A DNA stretch of 64,000 bases, taken from the IMG/VR virus record IMGVR_UViG_3300037047_000246; one strand, given 5' to 3'. Made by a program: the position numbers and the translations under genes. Position 1 is the stretch's first letter. Each line of letters starts with the position of its first letter. The notes beneath the pieces are model-generated. The model did not search any database and was not told the origin of the DNA. It saw only the letters and a program-made list of their open reading frames with translations. Shown here piece by piece: positions 32,302 to 64,000 of the stretch. The stretch is from a virus (lineage: Duplodnaviria > Caudoviricetes).

Positions 32302-33557
32302 ATGTTGGAGCTCAAAAGTGACACGCTGCAGTTTCATTTTCCGGAAATCCACCCGGAGGCGCGCGTCAGCGTCGTCTTCAATCGGACGCTCCGCATCCCG
32401 GACGACGGCAGGACGTATCCTCTGCCTCCGGGCCTCGGCCGGTTCCCCATCAAGCACGTGGACGACTACAAAGACAAGGTACCCGAGAAGTGGGTCCGTC
32501 ACGGCGGAGTCATGTTGCCCATGTGGCAGTCTGAGGCCATGTGGCTGCAGTTCGCTCCGCACACGCCGCACGGGCACGCGCACGCTTGGCCATTCGCCAT
32601 CAAGGTTTCGACCGGCAAGCGCTCGGCCGTCACCGGCAAACCATGGTCCAAAATGCTGCGCGAAGGCGACTACTGCGTGGTCCCGGAGCAGCCCTGGCTT
32701 GATGGTTACGTGGTCGAAGACGGCGTCGTTCGCCAGTTCGTCGCTGCTCCGCTCGGCATGGGCGTGACCGCCGAGGAGCAGATCACGGGCAAAGCCGAGT
32801 TCGGAGGCCTGCAGATTGAAATGTTCCCAATGCTCGCCGCGGAGTTCCTGAAGCGTTGGCCGAAAATTGAGCCGCGGCGCCAAGACTTCGGCCGCAGGAT
32901 CTTGCGCAAATGCTCCGCCAGCTTCGAGAGCAGCAGCTCTAGCGAAGGGCTCGGATTCGGCCCGGAGACACCCATTGGAGATTGCGAGCTGTCCGAGAGC
33001 TCCGACACCCTGGACTTCATGCCGCAGAGCTACAGCGCTGGGCCGGCTGCGGCCGCAAGCGTCAACTACTGTGCCGACGTCGACGTCAGGCTCGAATCGG
33101 CGACGTCGGCCAGTCGCGCGGCCTGACCAGAGACTGCGCGTTCAACGGCGAGGTCAAGACCTCGGGCATCATTCGGCCCGACATGGGCCTGGCGCCTGGC
33201 GGCCGCATGGCCCAGCAGGTGTTCGCCGACGCGTACGGCATGGACTGCTGGTCCCGCGATCACCACGACCGGTGCTTCGTGCATCTGTCGAATTCTCTGG
33301 CATGGAAGGCCATCACGGGCCAGGATGTACCCACCATGCCATTCACCGCGGCCGATTATAGCCGCCGCGGCTACCCGTGGTATGAAGCATACTCCGAAAT
33401 GCCATCCTTGTCTGGAACTACACATACCAAGGCACTCAAAAGTGTGGTTTCAATGGATGCATCATCGGGTGGGCCGCCGATCGTATTGGATAATGAATCA
33501 GCGCACATCAAACTCCATCAGGTAATGAAAGTGGTGCGAGACGGGAAATGGGGTTGA
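32302..33557 (+). pseudogene. conserved hypothetical protein, frameshifted at ~33095
   Basis: RTLRIPDDG.YPLPPGLG.FP..QPWLDG..VRQFVA.PLG in one frame and MGLAPGG..CFVHL..YSRRGYPWY in another; joined by one extra A in ctcgaa(a)tcggc. Confidence 0.75.
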
Positions 33558-33603
33558 TTGGTGATCCGTTTTTCTGGGTTGGGCCATCCGGATCATTTGC
33601 TTC

Positions 33604-33690
33604 CCGTACGCAGGGTATGCCAGTGAAATAATGCTTGACGTTAGCAATTGCGGCCTCACTGCGCGTCTTAGGGTATGACTCGTAATCCAT
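33604..33690 (-). pseudogene. N-terminal remnant of a homing-endonuclease-associated domain
   Basis: YPKTRSEAAIANVKHYFTGIPC matches the KTRxEAxxxGxKxYFTGxPC motif, then similarity stops. Confidence 0.55.
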
Positions 33691-33722
33691 AATCACTAAG
33701 GTCACAACAAATTGAGTAAACC

Positions 33723-33956
33723 ATGATGATTTGCCACAGTTATTGCGCTAGTCACTGCTGGCACGTTTACCATGGCCTAGTGTGGATGGTCGTGCCTGCC
33801 GGGCACGTTGTAATGCAGTGCTGCAAGTGCAGCGCGATGGCGCTCGAGCGAAGTGAGCATTCGACTTGTTGCCCGCCCATTCGCCGCCAGCGCACTTGGA
33901 CGACAAGCGAGTGGAAATTCACTCCGACATCTGTGCGCAGCGGCACGTGGACGTGA
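33723..33956 (+). CDS. small Cys/His-rich protein
   Basis: CHSYC..HCWH..QCCKC. Confidence 0.45.
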   Translation: MMICHSYCASHCWHVYHGLVWMVVPAGHVVMQCCKCSAMALERSEHSTCCPPIRRQRTWTTSEWKFTPTSVRSGTWT

Positions 33957-34008
33957 GCACATCGCTGGCTGCGCAGGTGCACTGAACCTTCGATGCACCT
34001 GCCGAGGT

Positions 34009-37969: not shown

Positions 37970-38368
37970 TCAGGACTCCTGGACGTCGTTCACGAACATG
38001 CTGAGCTGAACGTCCTCTGGAATGGCAGCTACCAGGCTGCGCACCAGCTCATTCAAATCGGCGTGTCTCAAGTGGTCAAATTTTTCAGTCAAAAGAGTCC
38101 GGCAAATGTCGCCGGACTCGAGACTGAGTGTCACCCATCCGCCTGGTGGGTGACTCAGCACCATGAGCACGACAAGTGTCGCATTCGGCAAACTGAATTC
38201 CGGCAAACGGAATCTCCACTCAATCTCAAGTTCAGTACTGCTGCTGACGACCAAGGAGCACAGTTCGGACGAATTTTCACCTGGCAGCACCAACTGCCGG
38301 GTGAATGACTCCAGTTTCTCCTTCATTTGCCTCTCGACGTCATGGCGAATCATGGAAGGACCATACAT
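37970..38368 (-). CDS. hypothetical protein (C-terminal FVNDVQES)
   Basis: 132 aa. Confidence 0.65.
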   Translation of the reverse strand: MYGPSMIRHDVERQMKEKLESFTRQLVLPGENSSELCSLVVSSSTELEIEWRFRLPEFSLPNATLVVLMVLSHPPGGWVTLSLESGDICRTLLTEKFDHLRHADLNELVRSLVAAIPEDVQLSMFVNDVQES

Positions 38369-38421
38369 GCGAATTCTTCCGGTGTAAGGTCTGTGCTGAA
38401 CCGAATCAGCACAGAGGTCGA

Positions 38422-39378
38422 ATGGCTCACTTCATGTTTTGCGTGTCTGGCTACTCCGGCACAGGCAAAGACGAATTTTGCAAATGTTTGGTGGACAAAT
38501 ACGGCGCGGTCCACACTGGGCTCGCCGACCCGGCCAAACGCCACATGGCAGACGTGTACGGGTTCACCAAGCATCAGTTGTTCGGCCCTAGCGAAGCTAG
38601 GAACTCTGGCGATCCTAGATACCCCAAGACGCGCTTGATCCATCTAGGGGGTAGGCCGGCCGATGCTGCAGAGTTACTGCCGACAAGCACAAAATCGCCA
38701 CCGTATCCTAGGCTTGGATGGTGGCTATTTGACGTGACGCCGCAGTCAGCTTCTGAGGCCGGCCTGAAGTATGTGGCGCGCGGAGACAATTCTGCAGTTT
38801 TGGCCGGAGACAGGCACCTGCCGACTCAGTATTTGGGGAGAATGCAGACGCGGGTGTTTGTGCAAGACACAGACCCTGGATTCTTTCTGTCGCCCAGGGA
38901 AGCGCTGCAGCTGTACTGCGACCTCATGAACCAACTGGACATGTTCACTTGGGTACGCGCCGGCGTAAGCACGCATCGGAAACTGGCTGAGCTGCACGTC
39001 CAGGCCCGAGGCACCCGCATGCGTAGTCCTAAGTACGCGTACGATCGCATGCTCGGACTATGCATCAACAAGCGCGGAGAGGAGTGGGAAAGGGGGCTGA
39101 CTGAAGACGTGGTCACATGCTTCTCCGATTTCAGACACCGGCACGAAATTCAGTATGTGCGCCAGGCCGAAAAAACGCACGAAGACTTCAAACCGGTCCT
39201 GATTCGAGTCAAGCGTCCAGGGGTGGAGACGCCGCCGTTCAACCATAGGTCAGAGACCGAGCAGGCCACCATTCCAGATTCAGAGTTCGACTACGTGGTG
39301 GACAATAACGACACCATTGAGAGTTTGCACAAAGTGGCTGCCCAGATCGTGGAGCAAGTGAAAGGCGTTTCCAAATGA
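38422..39378 (+). CDS. deoxynucleoside monophosphate kinase (T4 gp1-like) with insertions
   Basis: VSGYSGTGKD P-loop; LADPAK; LFGPSEAR; SPREALQ; SDFRHRHE; IRVKRPG..HRSE; DYVVDN. Confidence 0.85.
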   Translation: MAHFMFCVSGYSGTGKDEFCKCLVDKYGAVHTGLADPAKRHMADVYGFTKHQLFGPSEARNSGDPRYPKTRLIHLGGRPADAAELLPTSTKSPPYPRLGWWLFDVTPQSASEAGLKYVARGDNSAVLAGDRHLPTQYLGRMQTRVFVQDTDPGFFLSPREALQLYCDLMNQLDMFTWVRAGVSTHRKLAELHVQARGTRMRSPKYAYDRMLGLCINKRGEEWERGLTEDVVTCFSDFRHRHEIQYVRQAEKTHEDFKPVLIRVKRPGVETPPFNHRSETEQATIPDSEFDYVVDNNDTIESLHKVAAQIVEQVKGVSK

Positions 39379-40328
39379 AAGTGGACCAAATTCTGCAAGC
39401 GTCAGAAATCGTGTCACACGCTGGTTGCCCTGACGGCATCGGAGCAGCCATGATTTGCGCTGCTGCGTTCGTGGGTGCCGGAATGAAACCACCTCCTACG
39501 AACTTCATCCAGTACGACACAAGAGGCCACGAAGGTATGGCTGTCCACCCAAGGCAGATATTTGCAGACATTACTCCCCCCAAAAGCCGGTGGGAAGAGT
39601 GGAAAGGCCTGTCGCCTATTGTGTTGGATCACCACGAAACGGTGCAGCACATTGTGCAGGCGCTCGGCGGTCAGTACGGCGGCCCGGACGAGTCTGGGTC
39701 CACTCTTGCCTTCGATAAAATAATGATGCCGTTGGCTGGCGACAGAATCGGGAAGGCTGCACTGGAGTCGTGGCGCACATTTGCTCACTTATGCATGACG
39801 AGGGACACTTGGAAAACCGCTTCGCCCGACTGGCCGGAGGCGTGCGCTCTGGCCCAAGCTCTTCTTCTGTACGGACACAGCTGGGCCGTGTCAGTGTCTT
39901 CGTTCGGAAGTCTTCCCATGGAAGAGTTGCTTGCAGTCGGCAGGAAAATGCACGACAAGATTATTCGGCAGTCTAAAGGAGTGACCAGATCGTCAGCCAA
40001 ATACGACGTCATACTGCCGTCAGGCACCATCAAATTGGCGTTTTTCAATCATGCCAACGGCGGGTCCATGAGCGACATCGCCCACTACATGATGGACGAG
40101 ATGCCGTGCGACGCTGTGGTTGGGTACTTCTATAAGCACGACAATGGGCAAACGCAGTGCGTAATGTCTGCAAGGACAAACGGCAGTTTCTCTGCTTCGG
40201 ATCTTGCCAGGTCTTTCGGCGGCGGCGGACATGCGAAGGCAGCTGGTTTTAGGCTCGATGGGAGCGTGTCGCCAGACGATGCCATTTCAGCGGTGCTGAA
40301 ACGCATCGTGGAGCTCAATCGGGCATAG
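39375..40328 (+). CDS. DHH/DHHA1 family phosphoesterase
   Basis: SHAGCPDG; ADI; LDHHET; ESGS; GGGGHAKAAGF. Confidence 0.9.
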   Translation: MKVDQILQASEIVSHAGCPDGIGAAMICAAAFVGAGMKPPPTNFIQYDTRGHEGMAVHPRQIFADITPPKSRWEEWKGLSPIVLDHHETVQHIVQALGGQYGGPDESGSTLAFDKIMMPLAGDRIGKAALESWRTFAHLCMTRDTWKTASPDWPEACALAQALLLYGHSWAVSVSSFGSLPMEELLAVGRKMHDKIIRQSKGVTRSSAKYDVILPSGTIKLAFFNHANGGSMSDIAHYMMDEMPCDAVVGYFYKHDNGQTQCVMSARTNGSFSASDLARSFGGGGHAKAAGFRLDGSVSPDDAISAVLKRIVELNRA

Positions 40329-42818: not shown

Positions 42819-44213
42819 TCACTTGTGCTCGCCCACGGATGATGGGACGCACACTCGACACCACTGCATCAAGCTAGGCAGACTTTCAGCAGCTAGCTGG
42901 TACATCTTGTGCGCCACGCGACGGTAGGACATGTGCCCTTTCGGTGTTGTGCGCAGCTCTACGATATAGTACAGCTCCTTGAGCGACATCTGAAAACTGG
43001 ACCGGTGCAAGTAGCCTAGCGGCACTACGTACTGCGACAAATCCGTGTCGTAAGCGGCCTCTTCGTCGTAAGTCGACGCATAGTCCATGGCAGCCACGTA
43101 CTCCGGCTCCAACTCCGAGCCAGCAATGTCGTCTGGAATGATGTAGCCGTACTGCGTTGTCAGCGGCTCGGGGAACTGCTCGCACCGCCTGTGCCTCTGC
43201 AAATCGCGAAATGCTCCGAAATCCATCAGGACATCGAAAGTCAACACGATCGTTTTGAATACGTCCGGTACTTCGGCGTGTTCAGGCCTGGCCGACATGT
43301 GTTTGCAGAACATGTCCGGATTCATGCCGTATCGCTGCTCCACCAAATCGAAAAACTCTGGTTCTGCGTTTGCTGGCACTTTGGTGACCAAGTCCACATA
43401 CCAGTCGGGCCGCTCCATCGAAAACTTGTCCGACGTAGGCCCTAGCGATAGCACCCTCGGCTCGAACGTGTTGGGAGACGCGTGGCGCATCAATACCGGG
43501 CAGACGTCTGACACAGCGGACAAAATGCTTTTGCCGATCTGCACGACTTCAGGATTGGAATGACCCATCATGGTGGATACCAGGTCCCTGGCGTCTCTGA
43601 AATTCAAGACGCAAGCGACGTTTGTGCCTGTGCCGGCCGGCAGAAGATACCGAAGGTTGTCGAAAGCCCTGGCGCGAACGACTCTGTCCACCTGCGAGGG
43701 GTCCTCAGGGTCTCTGCCCATCAAGACCGCGCATCTCCTGACCATCGCATCGTGCAACTTGTCGTATGTGGCATACATGCGGCTGGCGAATGGCTTCATA
43801 GTCTCAGGGCCGCCTGGGGGCGTCACGAAACTGTCTTTGGAAAATCTCTGGTACCTGGTGCTTTTTTCTGAATAAGCGCCTCTCTGCATCGTTTCCACCA
43901 CTTTGGATGCCACTATGGACAGCCCCTCGATGCAAATAGGCACTGTCGCCAGTTCAGCGACGGAGCTATGCCCATAGCCGATTACCCACTTGTCGTGGAA
44001 TTTGCCAGACTCTTCTAGCGTGATGTTGCTCAAGATTTCTTTGGCAGACATCGGGGAACGGGAGTACTTGGCCAGCACAGTGGCCTGCACTGCTGGATCG
44101 AGCAGTTTTCCATCAGATCCCATCAAACAGAATACGTTAGGCACAGTTTCCTCCACACGAACACTGGCGTCTTGGCTCCGATTCCGACCTCCCCATCCTA
44201 CAGTCGAAAGCAT
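42819..44213 (-). CDS. thyX: FAD-dependent thymidylate synthase, tandem-domain type
   Basis: AKYSRS; GYGHSSVAE; SEKSTRY; RYLLP; FRDLQRHR; YIVELRT..GHMSYR; start uncertain. Confidence 0.9.
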   Translation of the reverse strand: MLSTVGWGGRNRSQDASVRVEETVPNVFCLMGSDGKLLDPAVQATVLAKYSRSPMSAKEILSNITLEESGKFHDKWVIGYGHSSVAELATVPICIEGLSIVASKVVETMQRGAYSEKSTRYQRFSKDSFVTPPGGPETMKPFASRMYATYDKLHDAMVRRCAVLMGRDPEDPSQVDRVVRARAFDNLRYLLPAGTGTNVACVLNFRDARDLVSTMMGHSNPEVVQIGKSILSAVSDVCPVLMRHASPNTFEPRVLSLGPTSDKFSMERPDWYVDLVTKVPANAEPEFFDLVEQRYGMNPDMFCKHMSARPEHAEVPDVFKTIVLTFDVLMDFGAFRDLQRHRRCEQFPEPLTTQYGYIIPDDIAGSELEPEYVAAMDYASTYDEEAAYDTDLSQYVVPLGYLHRSSFQMSLKELYYIVELRTTPKGHMSYRRVAHKMYQLAAESLPSLMQWCRVCVPSSVGEHK

Positions 44214-45460: not shown

Positions 45461-46990
45461 ATGGTGGACTGGACTGACTTTTTAAACAAATCGGAAACTC
45501 TTCGGCAGTTCGGGTACTCTATGCCGGATAAAGATGCGCAGGACTGCTTCGCCAATTGTGCCTTGTGCAACGAAGCAATTCGCACCACGCGCAGGGCACT
45601 GCGCCGCACTGTGCGTAAAAGGTGTACGTACAGGTGCGGCCCATGCATTGCCAGATCCGACGAAGGTCGCCTAGCTCGATCGCGCCAAGCTAAAGCGGTG
45701 TGGGGAGATCCAGAGATTGCCCGCGCCATACAAGACAAGAACGCACAAAACGCCAGATCTGCGGCTGGCCGGCAGCAGCGCTCTATGCAAGCCAAACTTG
45801 CTTGGGCGACGCCAGAGTTTGCGAGGTTGCACAGAGCGCGCATAGCAACTTTGTTCAAATCGGCTGAACATCGCAGACTTGTTGCAGAGCGCAATAAGTC
45901 AGATTACGCGGCAAATCCGGAAGAATACCTGAAAACCAAGACAGCTGCGCTGCGCTCAGTGCAGGCCAAAGCGGCGCACAAAGCAGCTTTGGCCAAACCA
46001 GAGTACAAACAGCTGCATGCAGAACTGGCTCGAGCTCGTTTTCAAGATCCAGTTTACAAGGCCAAAATCGCTGCTGGGCTCGAAGGTTTCCCCCGCGGAG
46101 GGCGGCAGTCTGCGCCGGAAGTGGCTGTGCGAGATGTGTTGACTGGACTCGGTTGCGAATTCATCTACAACAAATCCCTAGGACCATATAACTTCGATTT
46201 TTTCATCGAGAAGCTAGATTTGTTCGTTGAAGTACAAGGTGAATACTGGCACACGTTGCCTAACAACGAACGCCGAGATAAAGCCAAGTATGCTTATTTG
46301 CGAAGCACCAGGCCCGCATCGAGGATAGTGTACATATGGGACTATGACCTGGTGACTGGCGCGGCTAGCGCTAAACTGGCACAAGCCGTCGGTGTGGCAT
46401 CTTTGCCAGTGCAAGACTTTTGTTTTCACGAAATAGCTTTAAGGGTTGTCGATTCGACGACGGCCAAGAATTTTCTCAACACCTGGCACTACGCACAATT
46501 TGGGAAATCGGGCAAATTCATAATCGGGGCATTTCTGGGTGACCAACTGGCGGCGGTAGCCAAACTGGGTCCAGTGTCACGCAAAGAAGTGGCCACTTCC
46601 CTAGGATCCAATCCTCGAGAAACATTTGAACTGGATCGACTGTGCATCCATCCTATGAGGCAAAAGAAAAACTTTGCTTCATACTTCCTTAGTCGAGTCA
46701 CCACACTGTTTTTCAACGCGTTTCCTGGTGCGATGCGCGTTGTTGCTTTTTCTGATGAGACGTTTGGGCACGACGGCACGGTGTATAAGGCCTGCAACTG
46801 GTCCCAAACGGGCACAGTGCGACCCGACTACATGTACGTGCGAAATGACGGTTGGTCTATGCACAAGAAAACGCTGTACAACCAAGCCCTCTCGGTGCAC
46901 ATGACCGAGAAGCAGTACGCGCAACAAAATGGATGGACGAAAGTGTTCGGCAAATGCAAGCACAAGTTCGTGCTTGAAAGGTCAAAGTAG
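45461..46990 (+). CDS. DUF559/Vsr-like PD-(D/E)XK endonuclease fused to a Mom-like GNAT domain, with N-terminal basic helical repeats
   Basis: SAPE..YNFDFF..VEVQGEYWH..RDKAK; WHY..ELDRLC..NFASYFLSR..VAFSD..GHDGTVYKACNW..G. Confidence 0.85.
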   Translation: MVDWTDFLNKSETLRQFGYSMPDKDAQDCFANCALCNEAIRTTRRALRRTVRKRCTYRCGPCIARSDEGRLARSRQAKAVWGDPEIARAIQDKNAQNARSAAGRQQRSMQAKLAWATPEFARLHRARIATLFKSAEHRRLVAERNKSDYAANPEEYLKTKTAALRSVQAKAAHKAALAKPEYKQLHAELARARFQDPVYKAKIAAGLEGFPRGGRQSAPEVAVRDVLTGLGCEFIYNKSLGPYNFDFFIEKLDLFVEVQGEYWHTLPNNERRDKAKYAYLRSTRPASRIVYIWDYDLVTGAASAKLAQAVGVASLPVQDFCFHEIALRVVDSTTAKNFLNTWHYAQFGKSGKFIIGAFLGDQLAAVAKLGPVSRKEVATSLGSNPRETFELDRLCIHPMRQKKNFASYFLSRVTTLFFNAFPGAMRVVAFSDETFGHDGTVYKACNWSQTGTVRPDYMYVRNDGWSMHKKTLYNQALSVHMTEKQYAQQNGWTKVFGKCKHKFVLERSK

Positions 46991-48181
46991 CGAAATCATG
47001 TCTGCGTGGTCAGCGCCTGTGCCGATCAGCACTACGGGGACGTTGGCTGCAGCTTCAATCCTGTCCACCATCGACCTTGTTTTGGAGGATAGTTTATTGA
47101 ACGCTTCCCTTCCTCCGCGAAGGCCGTGATCGCGCCAGTCCAAATACTGCACGAAATTCAGCGCCAGCTTTGTTGCGCCGTTCGTTGCGACAGCGTCTTC
47201 CAAACCCACCCAAGAGAACGTGCAAACACGTCGCACCCTCTTTGTGACTGTCGTCCTTTCGCGCTCCATGAGTGCAGCTGCCTCTTCGTCTGGCATTCCA
47301 GCTTCCTGTGCTATTTGCTGCCAGGTCAGCTCTTTGCAGTCAGTGTAGAAATCGCCAGAGTACCCCGTCTGCACGCCGTTCTCCTGCACGTTGCCGACTC
47401 GGATGCCAAAAGTACGGAGATTCAGGTATACGTCGCCCACCATGGAAGCTGGCACTGCCATGTCGTCCATGGCCTTTTGGGCGGTGCAGTTGCGCGAGGT
47501 GCAGTGCGGGTAGCTGGAGCCATGGTCGACGGACAAGGCGTATCCTTGGGAACCTTCATGCAGCCAAGTGTTGCCCGCCTTGATCAGACCTTGCACGCTC
47601 GACCTGAACTGCATGCCGTCCAAAATGCGCACTCTGGACTCAAACTCGTGCATGAGCTCGAGCATGCCTGGTCTAGCATGTCCTGTCCATTCAGCCACTT
47701 GTTTGGACCCAACAAGCAGGCATTCCTTCCTGCGCAGAATCTTGTCCACCATGGACGCGGAGCACCCCTGCATCGTGGAAGCGATATGTTTGGTTGACCC
47801 GGAGCCGTTTCTTTCTTGCTCCGCATGGTCCGGAGTGACGACGGAAGCCCTGCTGTGTAGGCACAAACTAGGTCTGCCTGTTTCCACCCATTCGTCGAAC
47901 AGCCTATCCCATGTGCCTTGCTCGGTCACGGTCAGTCCGGAGGCCGGAGACAGCCACCCCTGCATGTTGACGCCTTTGGCCTTCCGAAGTGCCAAAGCAG
48001 TGGGGATGGCTTTCGCCACGAACTTGTAGTTGCCAGACAAGAACGTGTGGCCTGCGTTGGGGAAATTCGAAGACGAGACGTGGCTGACGCCGTACGCGTC
48101 TGCCAGCCAAGCGGACACCTTGCCTTTGCCGGACGATCCCCAGAACCCGTCTAACAAAATGTTGAACTTGCCAGGTTGCAT
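46982..48181 (-). CDS. purZ: PurZ-type 2-amino-2'-deoxyadenylosuccinate synthase (PurA homolog)
   Basis: DGFWGSSGKGK (Ser16 at PurA Asp13); NFPNAGHT; STMQG; EGSQG..YPHCTSRNCT; IRVG; SG.FY.D..ELTW; TTVTKRVRRV; LNFVQYL instead of TKLD. Confidence 0.85.
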   Translation of the reverse strand: MQPGKFNILLDGFWGSSGKGKVSAWLADAYGVSHVSSSNFPNAGHTFLSGNYKFVAKAIPTALALRKAKGVNMQGWLSPASGLTVTEQGTWDRLFDEWVETGRPSLCLHSRASVVTPDHAEQERNGSGSTKHIASTMQGCSASMVDKILRRKECLLVGSKQVAEWTGHARPGMLELMHEFESRVRILDGMQFRSSVQGLIKAGNTWLHEGSQGYALSVDHGSSYPHCTSRNCTAQKAMDDMAVPASMVGDVYLNLRTFGIRVGNVQENGVQTGYSGDFYTDCKELTWQQIAQEAGMPDEEAAALMERERTTVTKRVRRVCTFSWVGLEDAVATNGATKLALNFVQYLDWRDHGLRGGREAFNKLSSKTRSMVDRIEAAANVPVVLIGTGADHADMISLL

Positions 48182-48510
48182 TATTTTTCCTCCGGCGAGG
48201 CCGGTTTGTGCGACGTTTGCTCAGAATCTGCAGAAAACATCACCATCCCTTTGTACTCTCTGACCCCTGAAACGCCATCGGACGAGACGTCCTGGCCCTC
48301 CGGTTCGTACACCGCCAAGACCAGCTCGCCCGGACCAAGCGAGTTGCCGCTGTCCTCGGCCAGCTGCTGCAGCAGCTGGCCGAGCGTACCCCCGGTGCGC
48401 AACGACAGCAGCTCCGGCACGTCTCTTTGCCAACCGCCGGCGCCGAGGTACCAGGTACCTTCTGGGGCCGAGTACATGTCGTTAATCTGTATCACTGCCA
48501 GTTTCAACAT
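48181..48510 (-). CDS. hypothetical protein coupled to purZ
   Basis: Its stop overlaps the purZ ATG. Confidence 0.65.
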   Translation of the reverse strand: MLKLAVIQINDMYSAPEGTWYLGAGGWQRDVPELLSLRTGGTLGQLLQQLAEDSGNSLGPGELVLAVYEPEGQDVSSDGVSGVREYKGMVMFSADSEQTSHKPASPEEK

Positions 48511-49243
48511 TGAACACTTCCGATTCTACCGACGATACCCTCGCCTTGCCTGCAGCTTTTGCAATTTTGCCGAGGTCTTTTGCTTCGATATACTTGGCCA
48601 ATTGGAAGCGTGCGTCTGTGGGTGGTCCGAGAGCTGCGATGCGGGCGCCGTTTATTTCCTTAGGTGAAAATACACGGCCCACCAGCTGCAACTGCCTGCG
48701 TTTGTTCACTCTGTTGGCCCACCGCATATCCAGCTTCCTTCGAATCGCCTTTTCGGTCATAAACATGACTCGAATTGTGAGATCAGCCGGGATGCGCCCA
48801 TGTACGCGCAAGGATGCTCGACACGCGTAGTCGCAAGCCAGAGCGAACGCTTCTTGGTAAGAGTCTGCTCGGATGAGCACATGTGCTAGCTTAAAACGAG
48901 GCGGAAGTATGACTCTCCACACTTTCGTGCGGTCGCTTATCGAAGCGCCTGGTCCGAGAAGCCTTTCCAGGGTTTCTTGCCGATATCCGGGAAAAGACAA
49001 GTCCGTGGCGGCGTCGTACAACTGGTCAAATCTGGTTTTGCCGATTTGTGCCGGAGACGCGGGCAGAGTATCCAAAAGCTCAGCCGGTATGGAGTTGTTC
49101 ATCACCATCGAGTAAAGGAGCGACGCCAGATACTGCTTTTCTTTGCTGCCTCTGAAGCGCTTCATACATTTCTCTACGGCTGCAACAGCTTTACGCTGGT
49201 CCACCCGGACAGTGCCTCCTTTACGTTTCTTTGAACTAGCCAT
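48482..49243 (-). CDS. basic hypothetical protein
   Basis: ATG 49243 within ORF 48482..49345. Confidence 0.7.
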   Translation of the reverse strand: MASSKKRKGGTVRVDQRKAVAAVEKCMKRFRGSKEKQYLASLLYSMVMNNSIPAELLDTLPASPAQIGKTRFDQLYDAATDLSFPGYRQETLERLLGPGASISDRTKVWRVILPPRFKLAHVLIRADSYQEAFALACDYACRASLRVHGRIPADLTIRVMFMTEKAIRRKLDMRWANRVNKRRQLQLVGRVFSPKEINGARIAALGPPTDARFQLAKYIEAKDLGKIAKAAGKARVSSVESEVFNVETGSDTD

Positions 49244-49501
49244 CTGTCTCACCTGTAGAGTATCGAGCAATGTGCAGACTGAGGGAACATACGTGACAAT
49301 ACGCTGCACTCGGTTCCCTTCGGTTTTGTGCGTTCTTGGAACCAAGGCGCCCGAAGCCGATCTCGCAGAGACAGAGGCACGATCCGAAAGATTTGAGAAA
49401 AAGGACTGCTCGATGATTCGGTTCCTTGTGAGTCATCCTGCTGCATCAGGTAGCCAGATCCAAAAAGTCTGTTGCCCCCTGATGGAGAGTTTTTAACTCT
49501 C

Positions 49502-54720: not shown

Positions 54721-54960
54721 ATGATCGCGCTTTGCCCCAAATGTGCCAAGCCCATGGAGCCGCTTGGGCAAGTGAACCGCATGGCGTGCTTTAGCTGCCG
54801 ATGTATCTTCGATGTTAGAATAACAGTAGACATCGAAGAGGTTTTCAGCAGTGACAAAGACGCCAACTTTGACGCGGACAGAGCAGTTCGAGGAGCTTCG
54901 CCGCCTAATCTTTTGCCCGCCGACTGCAGCCGTGTTGACGGGGCCAGAGAAGACGGGTAA
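54721..54960 (+). CDS. zinc-ribbon protein
   Basis: CPKC..CFSC; overlaps the holB-like start. Confidence 0.55.
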   Translation: MIALCPKCAKPMEPLGQVNRMACFSCRCIFDVRITVDIEEVFSSDKDANFDADRAVRGASPPNLLPADCSRVDGAREDG

Positions 54961-55624
54961 ATGGCGCACCGCTGTGCAGGTGTCGGAGTTTGCAGGCCTT
55001 AGTGACGTCCTGCAAGTCGACGGGTCCATAGATGGAGCGCGTCAAGCGGCTTCATTTTTGAAGTCCATGCCGCTTGACGGCGTTGTGAGATTGGTCGTGG
55101 TAGACGGCCGGTCCGGCATATCAGAACCTGCGCAGGACGCCTACCTGAAAACTTGCGAAGAGACGCCAGAATTTGCCTCAATTCTGTTCGTGGCGGAAGA
55201 CGCGAACTTGCTGCGGCCCGCGCTGCTGTCTCGCTTGACCGTGCTGCATTGGTCTGCTGCCACCGCGGACGAGGTGCGCGCAACGACAGAAGTTGACGAC
55301 TTCGTTGCGACTATGTTGCGAGGAAGGACTGAACTTTGCCAGACTGCGACTAAAAATGCTGTCGCGCTGCGCGCACTGTACGACGCTGCAATTGACCTGG
55401 CGAACAGCTCACTAGACCTGACCAGGGCGCCGTCCATGCTGACCGAGTGGTCCAAACTGGACGATGACTGCAAGAAAGCAGCCATTTTGGCGTGCGAAGC
55501 TGCGGCCGCGCATGCGCTAGAAGCACCGCGTTTGACGTCTCTGCTTCTTTTTGTAGACGTGCTTAGGACCTGCCCGTCTGCAAATGTTGAAGTCCATTGG
55601 TGGCGAGCCTGCATGGCGGTGTAA
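54851..55624 (+). CDS. holB: DNA polymerase III delta-prime-like clamp-loader subunit
   Basis: VLTGPEKTGK; IDGAR; VVVD..ISEPAQDAYLKTCEE; LLRPALLSR. Confidence 0.8.
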   Translation: MTKTPTLTRTEQFEELRRLIFCPPTAAVLTGPEKTGKWRTAVQVSEFAGLSDVLQVDGSIDGARQAASFLKSMPLDGVVRLVVVDGRSGISEPAQDAYLKTCEETPEFASILFVAEDANLLRPALLSRLTVLHWSAATADEVRATTEVDDFVATMLRGRTELCQTATKNAVALRALYDAAIDLANSSLDLTRAPSMLTEWSKLDDDCKKAAILACEAAAAHALEAPRLTSLLLFVDVLRTCPSANVEVHWWRACMAV

Positions 55625-56556
55625 TGTGCTTTGCGGTGAGCACTTTAATCATTGTTAACGGGGACGACGACTTCCTGAAAGAGCGTGCAGCTCTTGACGA
55701 GTCGGCTATGAGTCTGGCGCCTTCTGTTCAGCATTTTTCGCTGAAGAGCGACGCTGAAAAGTATGCCGAGTGGCTTGACATGATTCCGATCGGAGGCGTC
55801 TGCACTTTGGTGCTGTGGGATGCTACAGAAGTGCCGGATTTGCCGTCTGACGGCACTGTCGTTTTGGTTGCCGCAAAAGGCAAAACCATTCACAGTGCAC
55901 GTGCTAAGCGCGAAGTCGAAGTCAAAAAACCCAAGCCGTACGACGACGGAGCAGAGTACGTGCGATGGATTCTGAAGGAAGGCGAGCGGCTTAACATAGA
56001 TCTAAGCATGATTGCCGTCGCACTTTTTTGGAACTGTGGGACGGACCTACGGAAGATATGCTCAGAGATCACGAAGATCAAAGTGCTGGTGGGTCCCGGA
56101 GGCACCGCTGAACCATCTTTGGCTCGGCGCGTCATGTGCTTTTCCGCTGAACTAACCCCTAAACATGTTATCGATGCTGTGTGTGAAGGTCATCCAGCTA
56201 AAGCCATCGCCTTCTACGATAGGCTGCAAGAAGGGGGATGCGAGACGGGATGGATAATAGCATACATGCAGCGTCATGCTATTCAGCAGTTACGTGCGGA
56301 GCTGTTGCTGAAGTCCGGGCACACGGTGGAGCAGGTGGCCGCTGCTTTCGGCTCACATCCGGCGTTCGTGAGGAGTAACATCCTTCCTAAGCTTGGTCTG
56401 TGGAGCATTTCTTCTTTGCGCTTTAGCCTTGACACCCTGTGCAGTCTTGATCTGAAGCACAAGCGCGGCACAGATGTTTCTCGATGGGGACTGGAACCAG
56501 AAATCATACGTTTGTCCGAGGAGGCCAAACACAATGTCACAAGTCGTCGAAGTTGA
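55624..56556 (+). CDS. holA: DNA polymerase III delta-like clamp-loader subunit
   Basis: IIVNGDDDFLKE; GTDLRKICSEITK; VIDAV..AKAI..YDRL..IAYMQR; LCSLDLKHK. Confidence 0.8.
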   Translation: MCFAVSTLIIVNGDDDFLKERAALDESAMSLAPSVQHFSLKSDAEKYAEWLDMIPIGGVCTLVLWDATEVPDLPSDGTVVLVAAKGKTIHSARAKREVEVKKPKPYDDGAEYVRWILKEGERLNIDLSMIAVALFWNCGTDLRKICSEITKIKVLVGPGGTAEPSLARRVMCFSAELTPKHVIDAVCEGHPAKAIAFYDRLQEGGCETGWIIAYMQRHAIQQLRAELLLKSGHTVEQVAAAFGSHPAFVRSNILPKLGLWSISSLRFSLDTLCSLDLKHKRGTDVSRWGLEPEIIRLSEEAKHNVTSRRS

Positions 56557-59305
56557 GCGTTGCAATGTTGTTGAGCTGCAGCGTCCGACCGCAGCAAAGG
56601 AAGCTGAGTCCGCTGGCCGTTGGACCAGATTTTTCACAAAGGAAGAAGTACACCCTTTTGACGAAATCCGGTGGAAGATTACCGATGCCAGGATAGTCAG
56701 CTCTGACGGCGTTGTCGTGTTTGAGCAGCTCGGAGTTGAGGTGCCTGATTGGTGGAGCGTCAACACGATCAACATCGTTGCTGACAAATACTTCCGGGTG
56801 ATTGATGGAGAGAAAGAAAACTCCGTCAAGCAAATGATCTTTCGAGTTGCGGTAGTCATGCGTAAGTGGGCTGCGGAGCAGGGTTATTTCAACTCTGATC
56901 ACGACGCCCAAGTCTATGAAGACGAACTGTGCTACGTGCTTCTGCACCAGTACGGAGCATTCAACTCGCCCGTCTGGTTCAACATCGGAGTGCCTGGTCG
57001 CAAGCAACAAGCCTCCGCTTGTTTCATTTCTAGCGTCGACGACACGCTTGACGCCATCATGGAGTTTCAGAAATCTGAAGTCAAAATTTTCGCTGGCGGT
57101 TCTGGTTCTGGCGGAAACTTGTCCAACTTGCGCTCGTCTTGGGAACGTCTGTCGTCTGGTTCATATGTGTCTGGCACGCTGGCATGGATGGAGGGCTTCG
57201 ACAAATTCGCCAAGGCCATGAAGTCCGGCGGCAGCACGCGCAACGCGGCCAAGATCATTGTGCTGGATATGGACCACCCAGACATCCTTGAAACAAAGGA
57301 CGGCCGCCCCGGATTTATTCGTTGCAAAGCGGCCTCGGAGAAAATTGCCCAGGACCTGGCTGCTCTGGGCTACGGCGTGGCCTACGACGATCCAAATTCA
57401 GTTTACAAGCTTGTGCCGTTCCAGAACGCCAACCATTCGGTCAGCGTCGACGATGCCTTCATGAAAGCTGTGGTCGACGACAAAGAATGGTGCACTGTGG
57501 AACGCACGACAGGCAAGGTTGTGCACACTTACAAAGCGCGCGACATGTGGCGCGAAGTGGCAGAAGCTGCTTGGACTTGCGGCGATCCAGGCATTCAGTT
57601 CACAGATACGATCAACGATTGGCATACCACTCCAGCTGCCGGTCGCATTCGTTCAAGTAACCCGTGTGCTGAATATCTCAACATAGACAACACAGCTTGC
57701 AACCTGGCGGCTATCAATCTGACAAAATTCTTTGACGGCCGAAAATTGGCGACAGACCGCTTGGCGCATGTGGTGCGTGTGCTAGTGACGGCGCAAAATG
57801 CCATAATTGCCATGGCCGAGTATCCGACGCAGGCTATCGCTGACAACTCGATCAAGCTGCGACCGATCGGGCTGAACTATGGCAACCTTGGGTCGCTCAT
57901 CATGAAGCTCGGATATGGCTACAATTCGGACGAGGGGCGGGCTGTTGCTGCTCGCACAGCGAGCTTGATGACAGGCATGGCGTATGTGGCGGCAGCAAAG
58001 TTGGCTTCCCGCATCGGTGCCTTCCCTGCTTTCCATGACAACAGGGAGCCCATGCTTGGCGTCATTGCTAAACATGCCGCTGCTGATGCCGACGTTTGCC
58101 AGCGCTGGAGTTTGCATCATGACCCGCTGGGGAAAGACGTCAAATCGTGCAGTGCATCCATATGGCGCGAAGCGCTAGAGCTCGGCCGCAAATATGGCTA
58201 CTCGGTGTCTCAAACTACGCTGCAGGCGCCGCTCGGCACGCTGTCGTTTTTGATGGAGATGGACACGACTGGCGTCGAGCCCATGTTCTCTCTGGTTACC
58301 TACAAATCTCTGGTCGGCGGCGGGGCGCTCAAACTGGTGAACTCGGCAGTGCTAGGTGCTCTGGAAGGTCTAGGGTACTCTAAGTCGCAGATTGAAGTCA
58401 TCTGCAAGTACATTGAGACCAATGACTACATAGAGGGAGCGCCTGGCCTCAATCCAAAGCATCTGCCTGTGTTCGACGGCGCCATGGCTTGCGGCCCCTC
58501 TGGCAGACACTTGTCTCCGATGGCGCATGTGGATATGTTGGCGGCCATCCAACCGCTCATCACTTGCTCCATCAGCAAAACTGTCAACCTAGCTAAAAAC
58601 ACCACTCCAGAGGAAATCGCCGACATTTACCTGCAGGCTTGGAAGCTCGGGGTCAAGTGCATCGCACTGTATCGGGACGGCAGCAAGATGTCGCAGCCTC
58701 TCGTAACAAAGACTTCTGAAGCTCCCACCGTGTCAATCGCGCCTCCTAGCGAGGAGGCGACACGACGCCGGCATCTGCCCGCGGATTTGGAAGGACACCG
58801 GCATCGGTTCACCATGGGCGGCTGCAAAGGGTATATCATGATGAACGAATACCCGGACGGCAGTTTGGGCGAGGTGTTCTTGCGTCTCGGCAAGACCGGC
58901 ACGACAATGGCTGGATTTATCGATGGGTTCACGCAGCTGCTTAGCATTTCTCTTCAGTATGGCGTGCCGCTAGACAAGATGATCCGATCGTTCGTGCATA
59001 CGAAGTTCGAACCGTCTGGGTTTACAGACAATCCGCAGATCCGGTTCGCCGACAGTCTGTTCGATTACCTGTTCAAACTGCTCGACATACGATATTTCGA
59101 AGGTCGCAACTCAGGCTTGGCAGACAAACTTGCGGCGATGGCATCTGAATCCGAGGACGCCGGCTCGCTGCCGCCGGTGTCCATGCCGGCTCCTGAACCG
59201 GTCAACGTCAGCGCCCCCATCTGTCCCAACTGCGGCAGCATGACGCGCCGGGTCGGCACCTGCCACCTGTGTGCGACGTGTGGAACAAGCACTGGATGCA
59301 GCTGA
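56534..59305 (+). CDS. nrdJ: class II (B12-dependent) ribonucleotide reductase with TSCPD and Zn-ribbon tail
   Basis: FNSPVWFN; QASACFI; GSGSGGN; GGSTRNAAK; SNPCAEY; NTACNLAAINL; QAPLGT; SISKTVN; LYRDGSK; CPNCG..CATCG. Confidence 0.95.
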   Translation: MSQVVEVERCNVVELQRPTAAKEAESAGRWTRFFTKEEVHPFDEIRWKITDARIVSSDGVVVFEQLGVEVPDWWSVNTINIVADKYFRVIDGEKENSVKQMIFRVAVVMRKWAAEQGYFNSDHDAQVYEDELCYVLLHQYGAFNSPVWFNIGVPGRKQQASACFISSVDDTLDAIMEFQKSEVKIFAGGSGSGGNLSNLRSSWERLSSGSYVSGTLAWMEGFDKFAKAMKSGGSTRNAAKIIVLDMDHPDILETKDGRPGFIRCKAASEKIAQDLAALGYGVAYDDPNSVYKLVPFQNANHSVSVDDAFMKAVVDDKEWCTVERTTGKVVHTYKARDMWREVAEAAWTCGDPGIQFTDTINDWHTTPAAGRIRSSNPCAEYLNIDNTACNLAAINLTKFFDGRKLATDRLAHVVRVLVTAQNAIIAMAEYPTQAIADNSIKLRPIGLNYGNLGSLIMKLGYGYNSDEGRAVAARTASLMTGMAYVAAAKLASRIGAFPAFHDNREPMLGVIAKHAAADADVCQRWSLHHDPLGKDVKSCSASIWREALELGRKYGYSVSQTTLQAPLGTLSFLMEMDTTGVEPMFSLVTYKSLVGGGALKLVNSAVLGALEGLGYSKSQIEVICKYIETNDYIEGAPGLNPKHLPVFDGAMACGPSGRHLSPMAHVDMLAAIQPLITCSISKTVNLAKNTTPEEIADIYLQAWKLGVKCIALYRDGSKMSQPLVTKTSEAPTVSIAPPSEEATRRRHLPADLEGHRHRFTMGGCKGYIMMNEYPDGSLGEVFLRLGKTGTTMAGFIDGFTQLLSISLQYGVPLDKMIRSFVHTKFEPSGFTDNPQIRFADSLFDYLFKLLDIRYFEGRNSGLADKLAAMASESEDAGSLPPVSMPAPEPVNVSAPICPNCGSMTRRVGTCHLCATCGTSTGCS

Positions 59306-60954
59306 CCCTACGGGACCTTTGGACCGAGGCGCAGTGGGGTAAACTGCGCCTCGTTCCTCCTTTTCCTGATTGGAGTGCCAAATCACACAACAAAGCATTG
59401 TGGCAATGCGAGTGTGGCCGGCGCAAGCAGATCATAACCCAAAATGTGACTAGCGGAAGGACAACCTCCTGCGGACAGTGTTCAGTCCTGTCTGCAGAAT
59501 ACTGGACTGCGACCAAGTTCGGCCACTTGCGCATGCAGACGCCTCAAGATATGCATCCGAAATCTTCTCGGAAAGTGGCTTGGCTGTGTGACTGCGGGCG
59601 TAGCAAGCTCATCGTGGTGCACAGCGTAGTCAACGGCGCCACTGTGCGATGCGGCCAGTGCAACGTTGTGGACCCTGGCCTGGCGCAGTTTGGGCTGTGG
59701 ACAGTGTCGCTGACCGGCAACGAGACTCAAAGCAGTGATGCGAAAATTCAGGCTCGATGCCGGTGCGGCCTGCAGTCTGAGGTTCGTTTAGCTGACCTCA
59801 CATCAGGCAAATCTAAAAGCTGTGGTCGGTGTTTTGAACGCGCCATGCAGTGGTATGAAGATCACCGAGATCAACTGCGTCAACTGCGCCTTCCATTTCC
59901 GCCAGATGCCTTGCCGAGCGGGTGGATCGTGGCCCGGTCGGCGGTTGTGCGTAGCAGCGTGCCGTTTGACGCTGAGTGCGGGGCCTGCGGTCGCTCGTAC
60001 AGGCCAACGTGGAACAATATTAGACAAGGCAAATCGCTAACTTGTGGCTGCGTTTCATCAAGAGTGTCGCATGGCCATAAACGACTAGCGGACTTCATAG
60101 TGTCGCTTGGTTTTGATGTTGAAGTGGAACACGCTATTGGCGGGCTAAAATTCGACGTTGTGGTGCCTAGTGCGCGCCTGGCGATTGAATTCCAGGGGCT
60201 CCACTGGCATTCTGCAGAGGGGTCGCAGACGAGGGACTTTAAAAAATTTGCTTTGGCCAGGAGCCTTGGTTACGGCGTAATATGTTTATATGAAGACGAA
60301 TGGCACGAGCATCGGCATAAAATCGAGAACTTGTTGCGCAGCCGGCTCGGTGTGAGCCGACCCGTCAGGTGGCGCGGATCCAAGTGCACGGTGTCTTGCG
60401 TATCGAGTGCGGACGCGGATGCCTTTCATGACAGTTACCACTATATTGGAGCCGCCCGATGTCCAGTCAACTACGGGGTGTTCGTTGAAGGAAACCTCGT
60501 TGCTTGCGCTTCTTTCAGGCGTCCAACCCGCCAGTCCAAATATCAGTACGAACTGGCGAGAATGTCCTCCTGCCCAAATATCACGGTGCATGGCGCATGG
60601 TCCAAGGTGATGCAAGCTTTTGCTTTTGACCACAAGCCCGAATCCGTCGTATCATTCTCTGACGATCGGTTATTTGACGGGCTCGTGTATGGCAAGATCG
60701 GATTTCGGCGCGACGGGAAAGTGAAGCCGGACTATTACTGGACTGACGGGAAGCGACGTTGGCATAAATCGTCGATGCGCAAGCGTGGTACTGAGCGCAC
60801 AAGTGGCAAGACAGAGGGGCAACTCAGGTCTGCCGTCGGTTTGTGCAAAATTTGGGACTTGGGTAAAACGAGGTGGGTATGGCCGCACACTTCCAATTCA
60901 GTGGTAAAGGAAGCTGACAGACGAGGAGATGGCCGCGGTCGTTCCCATGTCTAA
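59296..60954 (+). CDS. putative homing endonuclease: repeated CxCG..SCG Zn ribbons, DUF559-like nuclease, GNAT (Hef/Mom-like) domain
   Basis: WQCECGR..SGRTTSCGQC repeats; FDVVVPSARLAIEFQGLHWHS; HYIG..YELARM..SFSDDRLFDG.VY..GF..PDYYW. Confidence 0.85.
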   Translation: MQLTLRDLWTEAQWGKLRLVPPFPDWSAKSHNKALWQCECGRRKQIITQNVTSGRTTSCGQCSVLSAEYWTATKFGHLRMQTPQDMHPKSSRKVAWLCDCGRSKLIVVHSVVNGATVRCGQCNVVDPGLAQFGLWTVSLTGNETQSSDAKIQARCRCGLQSEVRLADLTSGKSKSCGRCFERAMQWYEDHRDQLRQLRLPFPPDALPSGWIVARSAVVRSSVPFDAECGACGRSYRPTWNNIRQGKSLTCGCVSSRVSHGHKRLADFIVSLGFDVEVEHAIGGLKFDVVVPSARLAIEFQGLHWHSAEGSQTRDFKKFALARSLGYGVICLYEDEWHEHRHKIENLLRSRLGVSRPVRWRGSKCTVSCVSSADADAFHDSYHYIGAARCPVNYGVFVEGNLVACASFRRPTRQSKYQYELARMSSCPNITVHGAWSKVMQAFAFDHKPESVVSFSDDRLFDGLVYGKIGFRRDGKVKPDYYWTDGKRRWHKSSMRKRGTERTSGKTEGQLRSAVGLCKIWDLGKTRWVWPHTSNSVVKEADRRGDGRGRSHV

Positions 60955-63084: not shown

Positions 63085-64000
63085 TTACGTCAGCTGCATC
63101 ACCCACCGCTTCTTTCCCAGGTCCCAAATCTTCGTGTAACCCTGAGACTCCCTTAGTTTGCTTTCTGTCGCCTCGCATCCAGGCGGTTTGCGCAAGGCGC
63201 TTTTGTGCCATCTTTTTTGGCCGCGCGTCCAGTAGTAGTCAGGAGCAACGTCGCCGTCGAAGACAAAACCTAGCTTTTCGTAGACCGAGCCAGTGAACAG
63301 CCTGTTATCAGAGAAGCTCACCACAGACCCGCTGCGACCTTCGGCAAACTCACGAAGCAGTTTGTGCCAAATTCCGTGCACCCGGTACCTGGGATTCGAA
63401 GCCATGCGCACCAGTTCCCAACTGTGCTTAGACTGGCGCGTAGGCTTTTTGAAGCTCACGCATGCCACCACTTCTCCGTTCACTGCTGCGCTGAAATTGA
63501 ACTTGGCGCAGCAGCCGCCAAGGTAGTGGTGTTTGTCGTAGAAAGCGTCCGCTTGCGCAGCCTGGATTCGCCCCACTTGCGTCTTGCTCGGGCGCATAGG
63601 TAAACAGTCCAGTCGGCCGACCCTGTTCAAGATCAGGTTCCCAAACACTTCCCGTTTGTTCGCCCATTCGTCTTCGAATATGGACAACATCCCCCACCCG
63701 CATCGCATTGCTTGCGCAAACTTCCGCGCGTCTCTATTGTGAGACTGTTTTCCGGAGTGCCACCGAAGTCCGTTGTGCTCTATGAGAATGCGCTTGCTCG
63801 GCACGCCCACGTCGTACTTCATTCCGTCGACTTCGAACTCTGCCTGTGCATGCACTCCGTTGGCAGCAAGGAAGTCAAGGATGCCTTGTTGCCCGGAGGA
63901 GACTCGGCTGCTCGCACATCCGCAGTTCAAGGAAATTCCCCGCTTGATGTCGTTCATGCGAGGTCTGTATGTTGCGCCACATGCCGGGCACATGGCGTCG
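63085..64000 (-). CDS. putative homing endonuclease (Zn ribbon, DUF559-like nuclease, GNAT/Hef-like), 5'-truncated by the window edge
   Basis: CPACG..SLNCGC; YDVGVPSKRILIEHNGLRWHS; HHYLG..WELVRM..SFSDNRLFTG.VY..GF..PDYYW; frame open to the window end. Confidence 0.85.
   Translation of the reverse strand, partial: DAMCPACGATYRPRMNDIKRGISLNCGCASSRVSSGQQGILDFLAANGVHAQAEFEVDGMKYDVGVPSKRILIEHNGLRWHSGKQSHNRDARKFAQAMRCGWGMLSIFEDEWANKREVFGNLILNRVGRLDCLPMRPSKTQVGRIQAAQADAFYDKHHYLGGCCAKFNFSAAVNGEVVACVSFKKPTRQSKHSWELVRMASNPRYRVHGIWHKLLREFAEGRSGSVVSFSDNRLFTGSVYEKLGFVFDGDVAPDYYWTRGQKRWHKSALRKPPGCEATESKLRESQGYTKIWDLGKKRWVMQLT

Follow-up and report, generated by a model that had tools for sequence, protein, structure and literature searches.

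A PurZ-type synthase and candidate helper enzymes for 2-aminoadenine DNA in a complete 362-kb phage genome

We analyzed a 64,000-nt stretch (hereafter the window) of the IMG/VR virus record IMGVR_UViG_3300037047_000246 (Duplodnaviria; Caudoviricetes), and in particular its gene purZ at 46982..48181 on the minus strand. Judged by its sequence, the 399-aa product is a PurZ-type N6-succino-2-amino-2'-deoxyadenylate synthase, an enzyme of the route to 2-aminoadenine (Z), and not an adenylosuccinate synthetase (PurA) or a PurZ0. The genome is a single record of 362,524 bp with direct terminal repeats and is 100% complete according to CheckV; the large phage proposed in a preliminary description of the window was thus recognized correctly and its size understated. 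Because this complete genome carries an intact PurZ-type enzyme together with the helpers used by small Z-phages, the 360-445 kb phage lineage that it represents probably has Z-DNA genomes. Our preferred reading, to which we assign a probability of roughly 0.7, is that the Z pathway is active and substitutes the genome largely or fully. Coordinates with the prefix C1 refer to the whole genome record and all others to the window.

The translation of the purZ open reading frame (ORF) begins MQPGKFNILLDGFWGSSGKGK. A Shine-Dalgarno sequence (GGAGGA) lies ~7 nt upstream of the start codon, and the start shares bases (TAATG) with the stop codon of the ORF upstream. No other PurA-family gene is present in the genome. 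In addition to the P-loop GSSGKG, the ORF contains the blocks NFPNAGHT, STMQG, YPHCTSRNCT, ELTW, TTVTKRVRR and NFVQY, so that every motif listed in the preliminary description was recovered.

The possibility that purZ is a decaying or non-expressed relic, for which we found no supporting point, is contradicted by this intact frame, by the strong Shine-Dalgarno sequence and by the translational coupling. It is effectively refuted by conservation, and we give it almost no weight: approximately 130 columns are invariant across PurZ homologues of 57-77% identity, the locus is syntenic in relatives, and homologues contain inteins. The latter were found in metagenomic PurZ homologues of 747-1197 aa (P0122, P0123, P0124 and P0130), each with one or two inteins (Hint/Intein_splicing plus LAGLIDADG) inside, at two or more insertion points overall. 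Inteins are typical of conserved, indispensable genes.

A PurA-superfamily domain was identified in the product using Pfam (Adenylsucc_synt, PF00709, E = 9.5e-29, 100.8 bits relative to a cut-off of 27), and the protein matches phrog_1211, '2-aminooxy adenylosuccinate synthetase' (E = 7e-45). Given these two E-values, the match is not due to chance. The best PDB sequence matches are PurZ of phiVC8 (6FM1/6FKO, 7e-31) and then PurZ of cyanophage S-2L (7ODX, 6.5e-27), followed at a lower level by archaeal PurA (5e-20), PurZ0 (7VF6, confirmed as the protein of Gordonia phage Archimedes, 4e-12) and E. coli PurA (about 1e-8).

The residues by which PurZ can be told apart from PurA have been listed in phiVC8 numbering: F12, S14 and T262 make up the pocket that receives dGMP's 2-amino group, and F295 and Y298 bind the adenine of ATP (bioRxiv 10.1101/2025.10.22.683976). 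We read the query column by column against PurA, PurZ and PurZ0 in a 68-sequence alignment. At these five positions the query has W, S, T, F and Y. Characterized PurZs have F or Y at the first position and S, T, F and Y at the others, bacterial PurA has an aromatic residue followed by D, G, K and V, and PurZ0 has F, S, T, M and Q; archaeal PurA is variable at the positions of T262, F295 and Y298. The Ser of GSSGKG lines up with the Asp of PurA GDEGKG, in agreement with the replacement of Asp13 noted in the preliminary description, and is invariant in 60 out of 60 rows of the Ser clade. The Thr at T262, which is Gly or Ala in PurA, is embedded in TTVTKRVRR, compared with GATTGRRR in PurA. The ATP-type pocket reads NFVQY in the query, TKLDV in PurA and SMADQ in PurZ0, and NFVQ aligns with the TKLD of Salmonella PurA, as had also been proposed.

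We inferred a tree using a careful IQ-TREE run (LG+C20), rooted on bacterial-type PurA, after building a quick tree. The short archaeal PurAs are the first to branch. All sequences with a Ser P-loop fall in one clade (support 100/98), within which PurZ0 is basal. A 37-row clade (99/96) contains the query and the characterized PurZs of phiVC8, BCSR129, S-2L, SH-Ab 15497 and PMBT28 and holds no PurZ0 and no PurA, a result with which the quick tree agrees. The sister group of the characterized PurZs is composed of an enzyme from Flavobacterium phage MaF61 and the huge-phage clade of the query (99/95). Based on this placement, the query is classified as an ATP-type PurZ of a deep, uncharacterized branch; its identity to any PurZ of GenBank phages is ~30%. 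Diagnostic residues, best PDB matches and phylogeny therefore all support the PurZ identity put forward earlier, with no clustering of the query with canonical PurA. The two other assignments considered were rejected. The PurA assignment conflicts with the Ser and NFVQ found instead of the catalytic Asp13 and TKLD, and all NCBIfam purA models score the query far below their cut-offs. The PurZ0 assignment conflicts with the nucleotide pocket, in which the query has F and Y but PurZ0 has M, Q and a retained Asp, and PurZ0 branches at the base of the Ser clade.

Outside the window, the search for DatZ suggested in the preliminary description led to a DatZ-like HD phosphohydrolase gene (C1:46220-46855), ~200 kb from purZ and the only HD gene of the genome. 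Its product matches Pfam YfbR-like (PF12917, E = 3.9e-18) and phrog_7076, 'dATP triphosphohydrolase' (E = 3.9e-16), and its PDB matches to YfbR and S-2L DatZ are of similar strength (~6e-4; 6.7e-4 for DatZ, 6ZPA). H34, H66, D67 and D119 are invariant in an alignment with the S-2L and phiVC8 DatZ proteins. The specificity pair is Y/T, within an R-Y-S-T motif, and relatives have Y or F with S. This Y-x-T equals the Y20-T/S22 variant of YfbR-like proteins reported from restriction-resistant, Z-enriched contigs (bioRxiv 10.1101/2025.10.22.683976), and the dATPase activity of the HD protein is putative.

The adjoining gene (C1:46855-47622) encodes a MazG-like protein (244-255 aa) whose C-terminal half is, according to an AlphaFold model (predicted local distance difference test, pLDDT, 85), a probable MazG-type all-alpha NTP pyrophosphatase. 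The top PDB folds retrieved with Foldseek are DCTPP1, iMazG, AF1178 and RS21-C6 (probability 0.99-1.0). The top 16 PDB matches all belong to the MazG superfamily (probability 0.87-1.0; template-modelling score by target 0.46-0.69), with weak E-values of ~0.1. Several homologues have been named 'NTP pyrophosphatase' by JGI.

The genome further encodes an adenylosuccinate lyase, PurB (C1:351119-352570; TIGR00928, 417.9 bits relative to a cut-off of 326.2; PDB 1F1O, 2.6e-117). No close cellular relative of this PurB was found, the best being a 37% match to the metagenome-assembled genome (MAG) of an uncultured archaeon. In characterized Z-phages the PurB step is attributed to the host enzyme. Within the window, the product of 38305..39378 (+) resembles a deoxynucleoside monophosphate (dNMP) kinase (Pfam DNMK, 27.4 bits, barely over the cut-off; phrog_139, deoxynucleoside monophosphate kinase, E = 3e-24) and is a candidate for the step from dZMP to dZDP. 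A class II (B12-dependent) ribonucleotide reductase (RNR) is encoded at 56474..59305 (+; Ribonuc_red_lgC, E = 2e-112, with Ribonuc_red_2_N and TSCPD). The search for a polymerase, also suggested previously, returned a single recognizable DNA polymerase, a 994-aa family-A (Pol I-like) enzyme with a 3'-5' exonuclease domain (C1:55695-58679); searches of the genome for PolB (PF00136) and Pol III alpha (PF07733) gave no match.

Taken together, these genes could form the following pathway. The class II RNR would supply dGTP, and would also be a source of dATP. The putative MazG-fold pyrophosphatase would convert dGTP to dGMP, which a functional, ATP-using PurZ would join with aspartate to give N6-succino-2-amino-2'-deoxyadenylate. 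The phage PurB, or that of the host, would cleave this succinylated intermediate to dZMP, and dZMP would be raised to dZTP by the dNMP kinase of the phage and an NDP kinase of the host. The DatZ-like HD phosphohydrolase would destroy dATP. We propose that Z is then inserted opposite T because dATP is missing, so that the Pol I-like polymerase would write Z by default, as in cyanophage S-2L, and not through a Z-selective DpoZ. The outcome would be a largely or fully Z-substituted 362-kb genome, resistant to adenine-dependent restriction.

The genes of this pathway recur together in relatives. Database searches with the query returned more than 1000 homologues at 57-82% identity, many on contigs of 240-445 kb, and 42 related loci were found in IMG/VR, most on contigs of 180-436 kb. 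Relatives of 430 kb and 436 kb share the gene order RNR, clamp loader, purZ, ThyX with the query phage. The HD and MazG-like genes lie side by side in 4 out of 4 complete close relatives with terminal repeats (376-436 kb), as well as in two fragments, and all four complete relatives keep the purZ, HD and MazG-like trio.

An alternative is that the enzyme serves nucleotide-pool metabolism or counter-defence and that its product does not enter DNA. For example, 2-aminoadenine (deoxy)nucleotides could act as signals or inhibitors, or the enzyme could support PurA-like salvage together with PurB and thereby provide adenylates in a large phage that replicates slowly. The phage PurB is compatible with this, as PurB has further roles in AMP and de novo purine synthesis, and so is the distance of ~200 kb between purZ and the HD/MazG-like pair, which leaves no compact Z cluster. 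The YfbR-like HD protein could likewise be a plain 5'-deoxynucleotidase (its NCBIfam model scores 4e-11, below cut-off). Such a role is nevertheless difficult to reconcile with the exchange of the Asp of IMP chemistry for Ser and of the guanine pocket for an ATP-type NF..Y, both as in proven PurZs. The query is moreover nested in the PurZ clade, and the best PHROG of the HD protein is the DatZ family. We regard a role outside DNA as quite unlikely.

Several observations weigh against the preferred reading of an active pathway with large or full substitution. Z in virion DNA is a prediction from the gene content. NF038379, a narrow NCBIfam PurZ model derived from enzymes of siphophages and podophages, is the top NCBIfam model for the query, at 170.7 bits relative to a curated cut-off of 300, and an archaeal PurA model follows barely below, at 161.2 bits. 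Falling under the NF038379 cut-off implies a divergent subfamily outside that operational model. The F12 position is Trp in the query, as in most metagenomic members of the family, and Tyr in S-2L, remaining aromatic throughout. The HD protein lacks the W20/I22 pair that gives S-2L DatZ its specificity. The MazG-like assignment has weak E-values (Pfam MazG-like, 0.037, in addition to those from Foldseek). The preliminary description had suggested looking for MazZ and DUF550; a gene for a probable MazG fold was indeed found beside the HD gene, and searches of the genome with Pfam MazG (PF03819) and DUF550 (PF04447) gave no match, the latter being uninformative as control genomes gave none either. 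Klenow and Taq (1e-33) are better pairwise matches of the polymerase than phiVC8 DpoZ is (4e-12, 23% identity), and we therefore rejected a Z-selective DpoZ identity. The purB gene is patchy, occurring in 3 out of 10 near-complete relatives. Finally, no YfbR-like HD gene was found in the distant purZ-bearing huge phages (~40-53% PurZ identity), which may clear dATP by another route. This distant set (IMG/VR G011, G015, G016, G019, G020 and G021; 250-395 kb) is also without a homologue of the MazG-like protein.

Some of these points would fit a pathway that is active and achieves only partial substitution, giving mixed A/Z DNA through incomplete exclusion of dATP or through Z synthesis in part of the cycle. 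Both the polymerase and the DatZ specificity residues are consistent with this, and the RNR would keep making dATP precursors. However, substitution is complete in S-2L, which has DatZ and an unselective polymerase; the Y-x-T/S variant of the HD protein was found on contigs surviving a restriction cocktail, which implies heavy substitution; and the purZ, HD and MazG-like trio is present in every complete close relative. Partial substitution is accordingly an unlikely alternative, although one that deserves some weight, and we retain large or full substitution as the preferred reading.

We also used palindromes to evaluate this reading, on the premise that a Z-genome might avoid only GC-only restriction sites. 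The mean z of 6-mer palindromes is -1.5 for the GC-only and -0.5 for the A/T-containing class. CGCG and GGCC are avoided, and GCGC and CCGG are enriched.

The clamp loader, RNR and ThyX named in the preliminary description are all real, based on Pfam matches in the window. The clamp-loader gene (54851..55624, +) encodes a DNA Pol III delta'-like subunit (DNA_pol3_delta2, E = 4e-6), and the flavin-dependent thymidylate synthase ThyX (464 aa) is encoded at 42819..44213 on the minus strand (Pfam Thy1, E = 9e-33). ThyX is unusually long, with the Thy1 domain matched in two stretches. The gene after that of the dNMP kinase-like protein encodes a DHH/DHHA1 phosphoesterase (39375..40328, +; DHHA1, E = 2.6e-10; phrog_4771, E = 1.8e-22). 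The part of the window from 34 to 64 kb is a nucleotide-metabolism and replication module, and the G+C content steps at ~33000-34000 from ~0.61 (1-33 kb, with many small ORFs) to ~0.54 (34-64 kb).

Immediately around purZ, the ORF list includes a small ORF of 109 aa (48181..48510, minus strand) with a stop that overlaps the start of purZ. It has no Pfam or PHROG match, and only the two closest relatives yielded homologues. The conserved gene directly upstream of purZ is 48482..49345 (minus strand; 253 aa from an internal Met at 49243). In 18 related loci a homologue directly precedes purZ on the same strand, and the alignment of the products has a mean column identity of 56%. The product has no match in Pfam, PHROG or Atlas, and its model (pLDDT 70) gave no meaningful fold match (best PDB Z score 5.5) and no match to a cluster of the AlphaFold database (AFDB). 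The gene, which is co-transcribed with purZ, is a candidate for a PurZ partner or pathway component that has not been described.

On the opposite side, a gene at 45461..46990 (+) is convergent on purZ and overlaps its end. It encodes a Vsr-like nuclease fused to a Mom-like (GNAT-type) domain (Pfam Mom, 1.7e-21; Vsr, 1e-4; phrog_1384, Mom-like, 3e-26). A paralogous Vsr/Mom fusion is encoded at 59269-60954 (+; 25% identity, E = 5e-13), and there is a possible third at 63085-63993 (minus strand). The two paralogous fusions each adjoin a core gene, purZ and the RNR gene respectively, and have whole-length matches to homing-endonuclease PHROGs. The 430-kb relative has the copy beside purZ, whereas the 436-kb relative lacks it. 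This on/off pattern fits a mobile gene and not a part of the Z pathway, and the gene is probably of the homing type.

ARAGORN identified a suppressor-type tRNA with the anticodon TTA (reading UAA) at C1:176188-176278; the three other tRNAs in the genome are Leu-CAG, Gln-TTG and Met-CAT.

Public sequencing runs that hold DNA of this genome are groundwater and coal metagenomes from 2020, and these are the only evidence of habitat. No result obtained here supports the myxobacterial host suggested in the preliminary description. A 6-kb contig that had been binned with a Methylobacter MAG carries one purZ homologue, an association too weak to point to a host. Another PurA-family gene, in the 735-kb uncultured megaphage LR756501 (1001-1735), encodes a canonical PurA (GDEGKG, TKAD) and not a PurZ; PurA-family genes of huge phages are therefore of both kinds.

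To our knowledge, all chemically verified Z-genomes are those of sipho- and podoviruses of ~38-67 kb. We found no work linking PurZ or Z-DNA to jumbo or huge phages in the searchable literature, and within that scope a large phage is a new context for PurZ, as the preliminary description had claimed. A survey of NCBI viral genomes distinguished seven Z-phage groups, with genome size not mentioned (Poubanne et al., PMC12884076). We lean slightly towards a broader interpretation, in which a whole 360-445 kb lineage from groundwater, coal and freshwater replaces A with Z, in genomes ~10x any known Z-genome and with a dispersed, partly self-sufficient pathway. The pathway would combine purZ with a dNMP kinase, an ordinary PolA plus clamp loader, a Y-x-T DatZ and a new MazG-fold enzyme, to which some members would add their own purB. 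If true, the switch from A to Z would be compatible with a large clamp-loader replisome and hundreds of phage genes, and isolates would greatly understate how common Z-DNA is in groundwater and freshwater viromes. The deep PurZ branch, the Y-x-T dATPase, the new MazG-fold enzyme and a Z-tolerant polymerase would then be enzymes of use in synthetic biology, and the results would bear on restriction and CRISPR defences against huge phages and on sequencing biases.

Compared with known systems, the query resembles the PurZs of phiVC8, S-2L, SH-Ab 15497 and PMBT28 in its PurA-superfamily fold, its Ser P-loop, the Thr of TTVT and its NF..Y ATP pocket. It differs from PurZs of the phiVC8/S-2L type in sequence (~30% identity), in having Trp at F12, and in length, being ~35-55 aa longer with insertions. 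With the PurZ0 of Archimedes (7VF6) it shares the Ser P-loop, the Thr of TTVT and membership of the 100/98 clade, but PurZ0 has the guanine-type pocket SMAD and a basal branch, whereas the query has NFVQY and is placed with the ATP-using PurZs. The HD protein and S-2L DatZ (6ZPA) have in common the HD/YfbR-like fold, the invariant catalytic His and Asp and the same PHROG, although the HD protein is only ~19% identical, has a longer C-terminal region and is without W20/I22.

The largest cultured phage with a PurZ-type gene that we found is Flavobacterium phage MaF61 (PQ858689, 167.8 kb), in which the gene (983-2326) encodes GSSGKG, TTLT and NFVNY and is annotated merely as 'putative adenosuccinate synthetase'. 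Its product shares the S, T, F and Y residue set and falls in the same part of the PurZ tree as the query (95/84), but is 26.5% identical to the query and on a long branch, and the MaF61 genome is less than half the size of that of the query phage.

At the level of the whole pathway, the query phage and Z-phages of the phiVC8/S-2L type both encode an HD enzyme of the DatZ type alongside PurZ, and the MazG-like protein of the query phage is a probable counterpart of their all-alpha NTP pyrophosphatase. The genome sizes differ (362 kb compared with 38-67 kb), as does the arrangement of the genes, with purZ ~200 kb from the HD/MazG pair here and a single cluster in those phages. In contrast to them, the query phage also has its own PurB and dNMP kinase, together with a polymerase that is neither a DpoZ nor a PrimPol.

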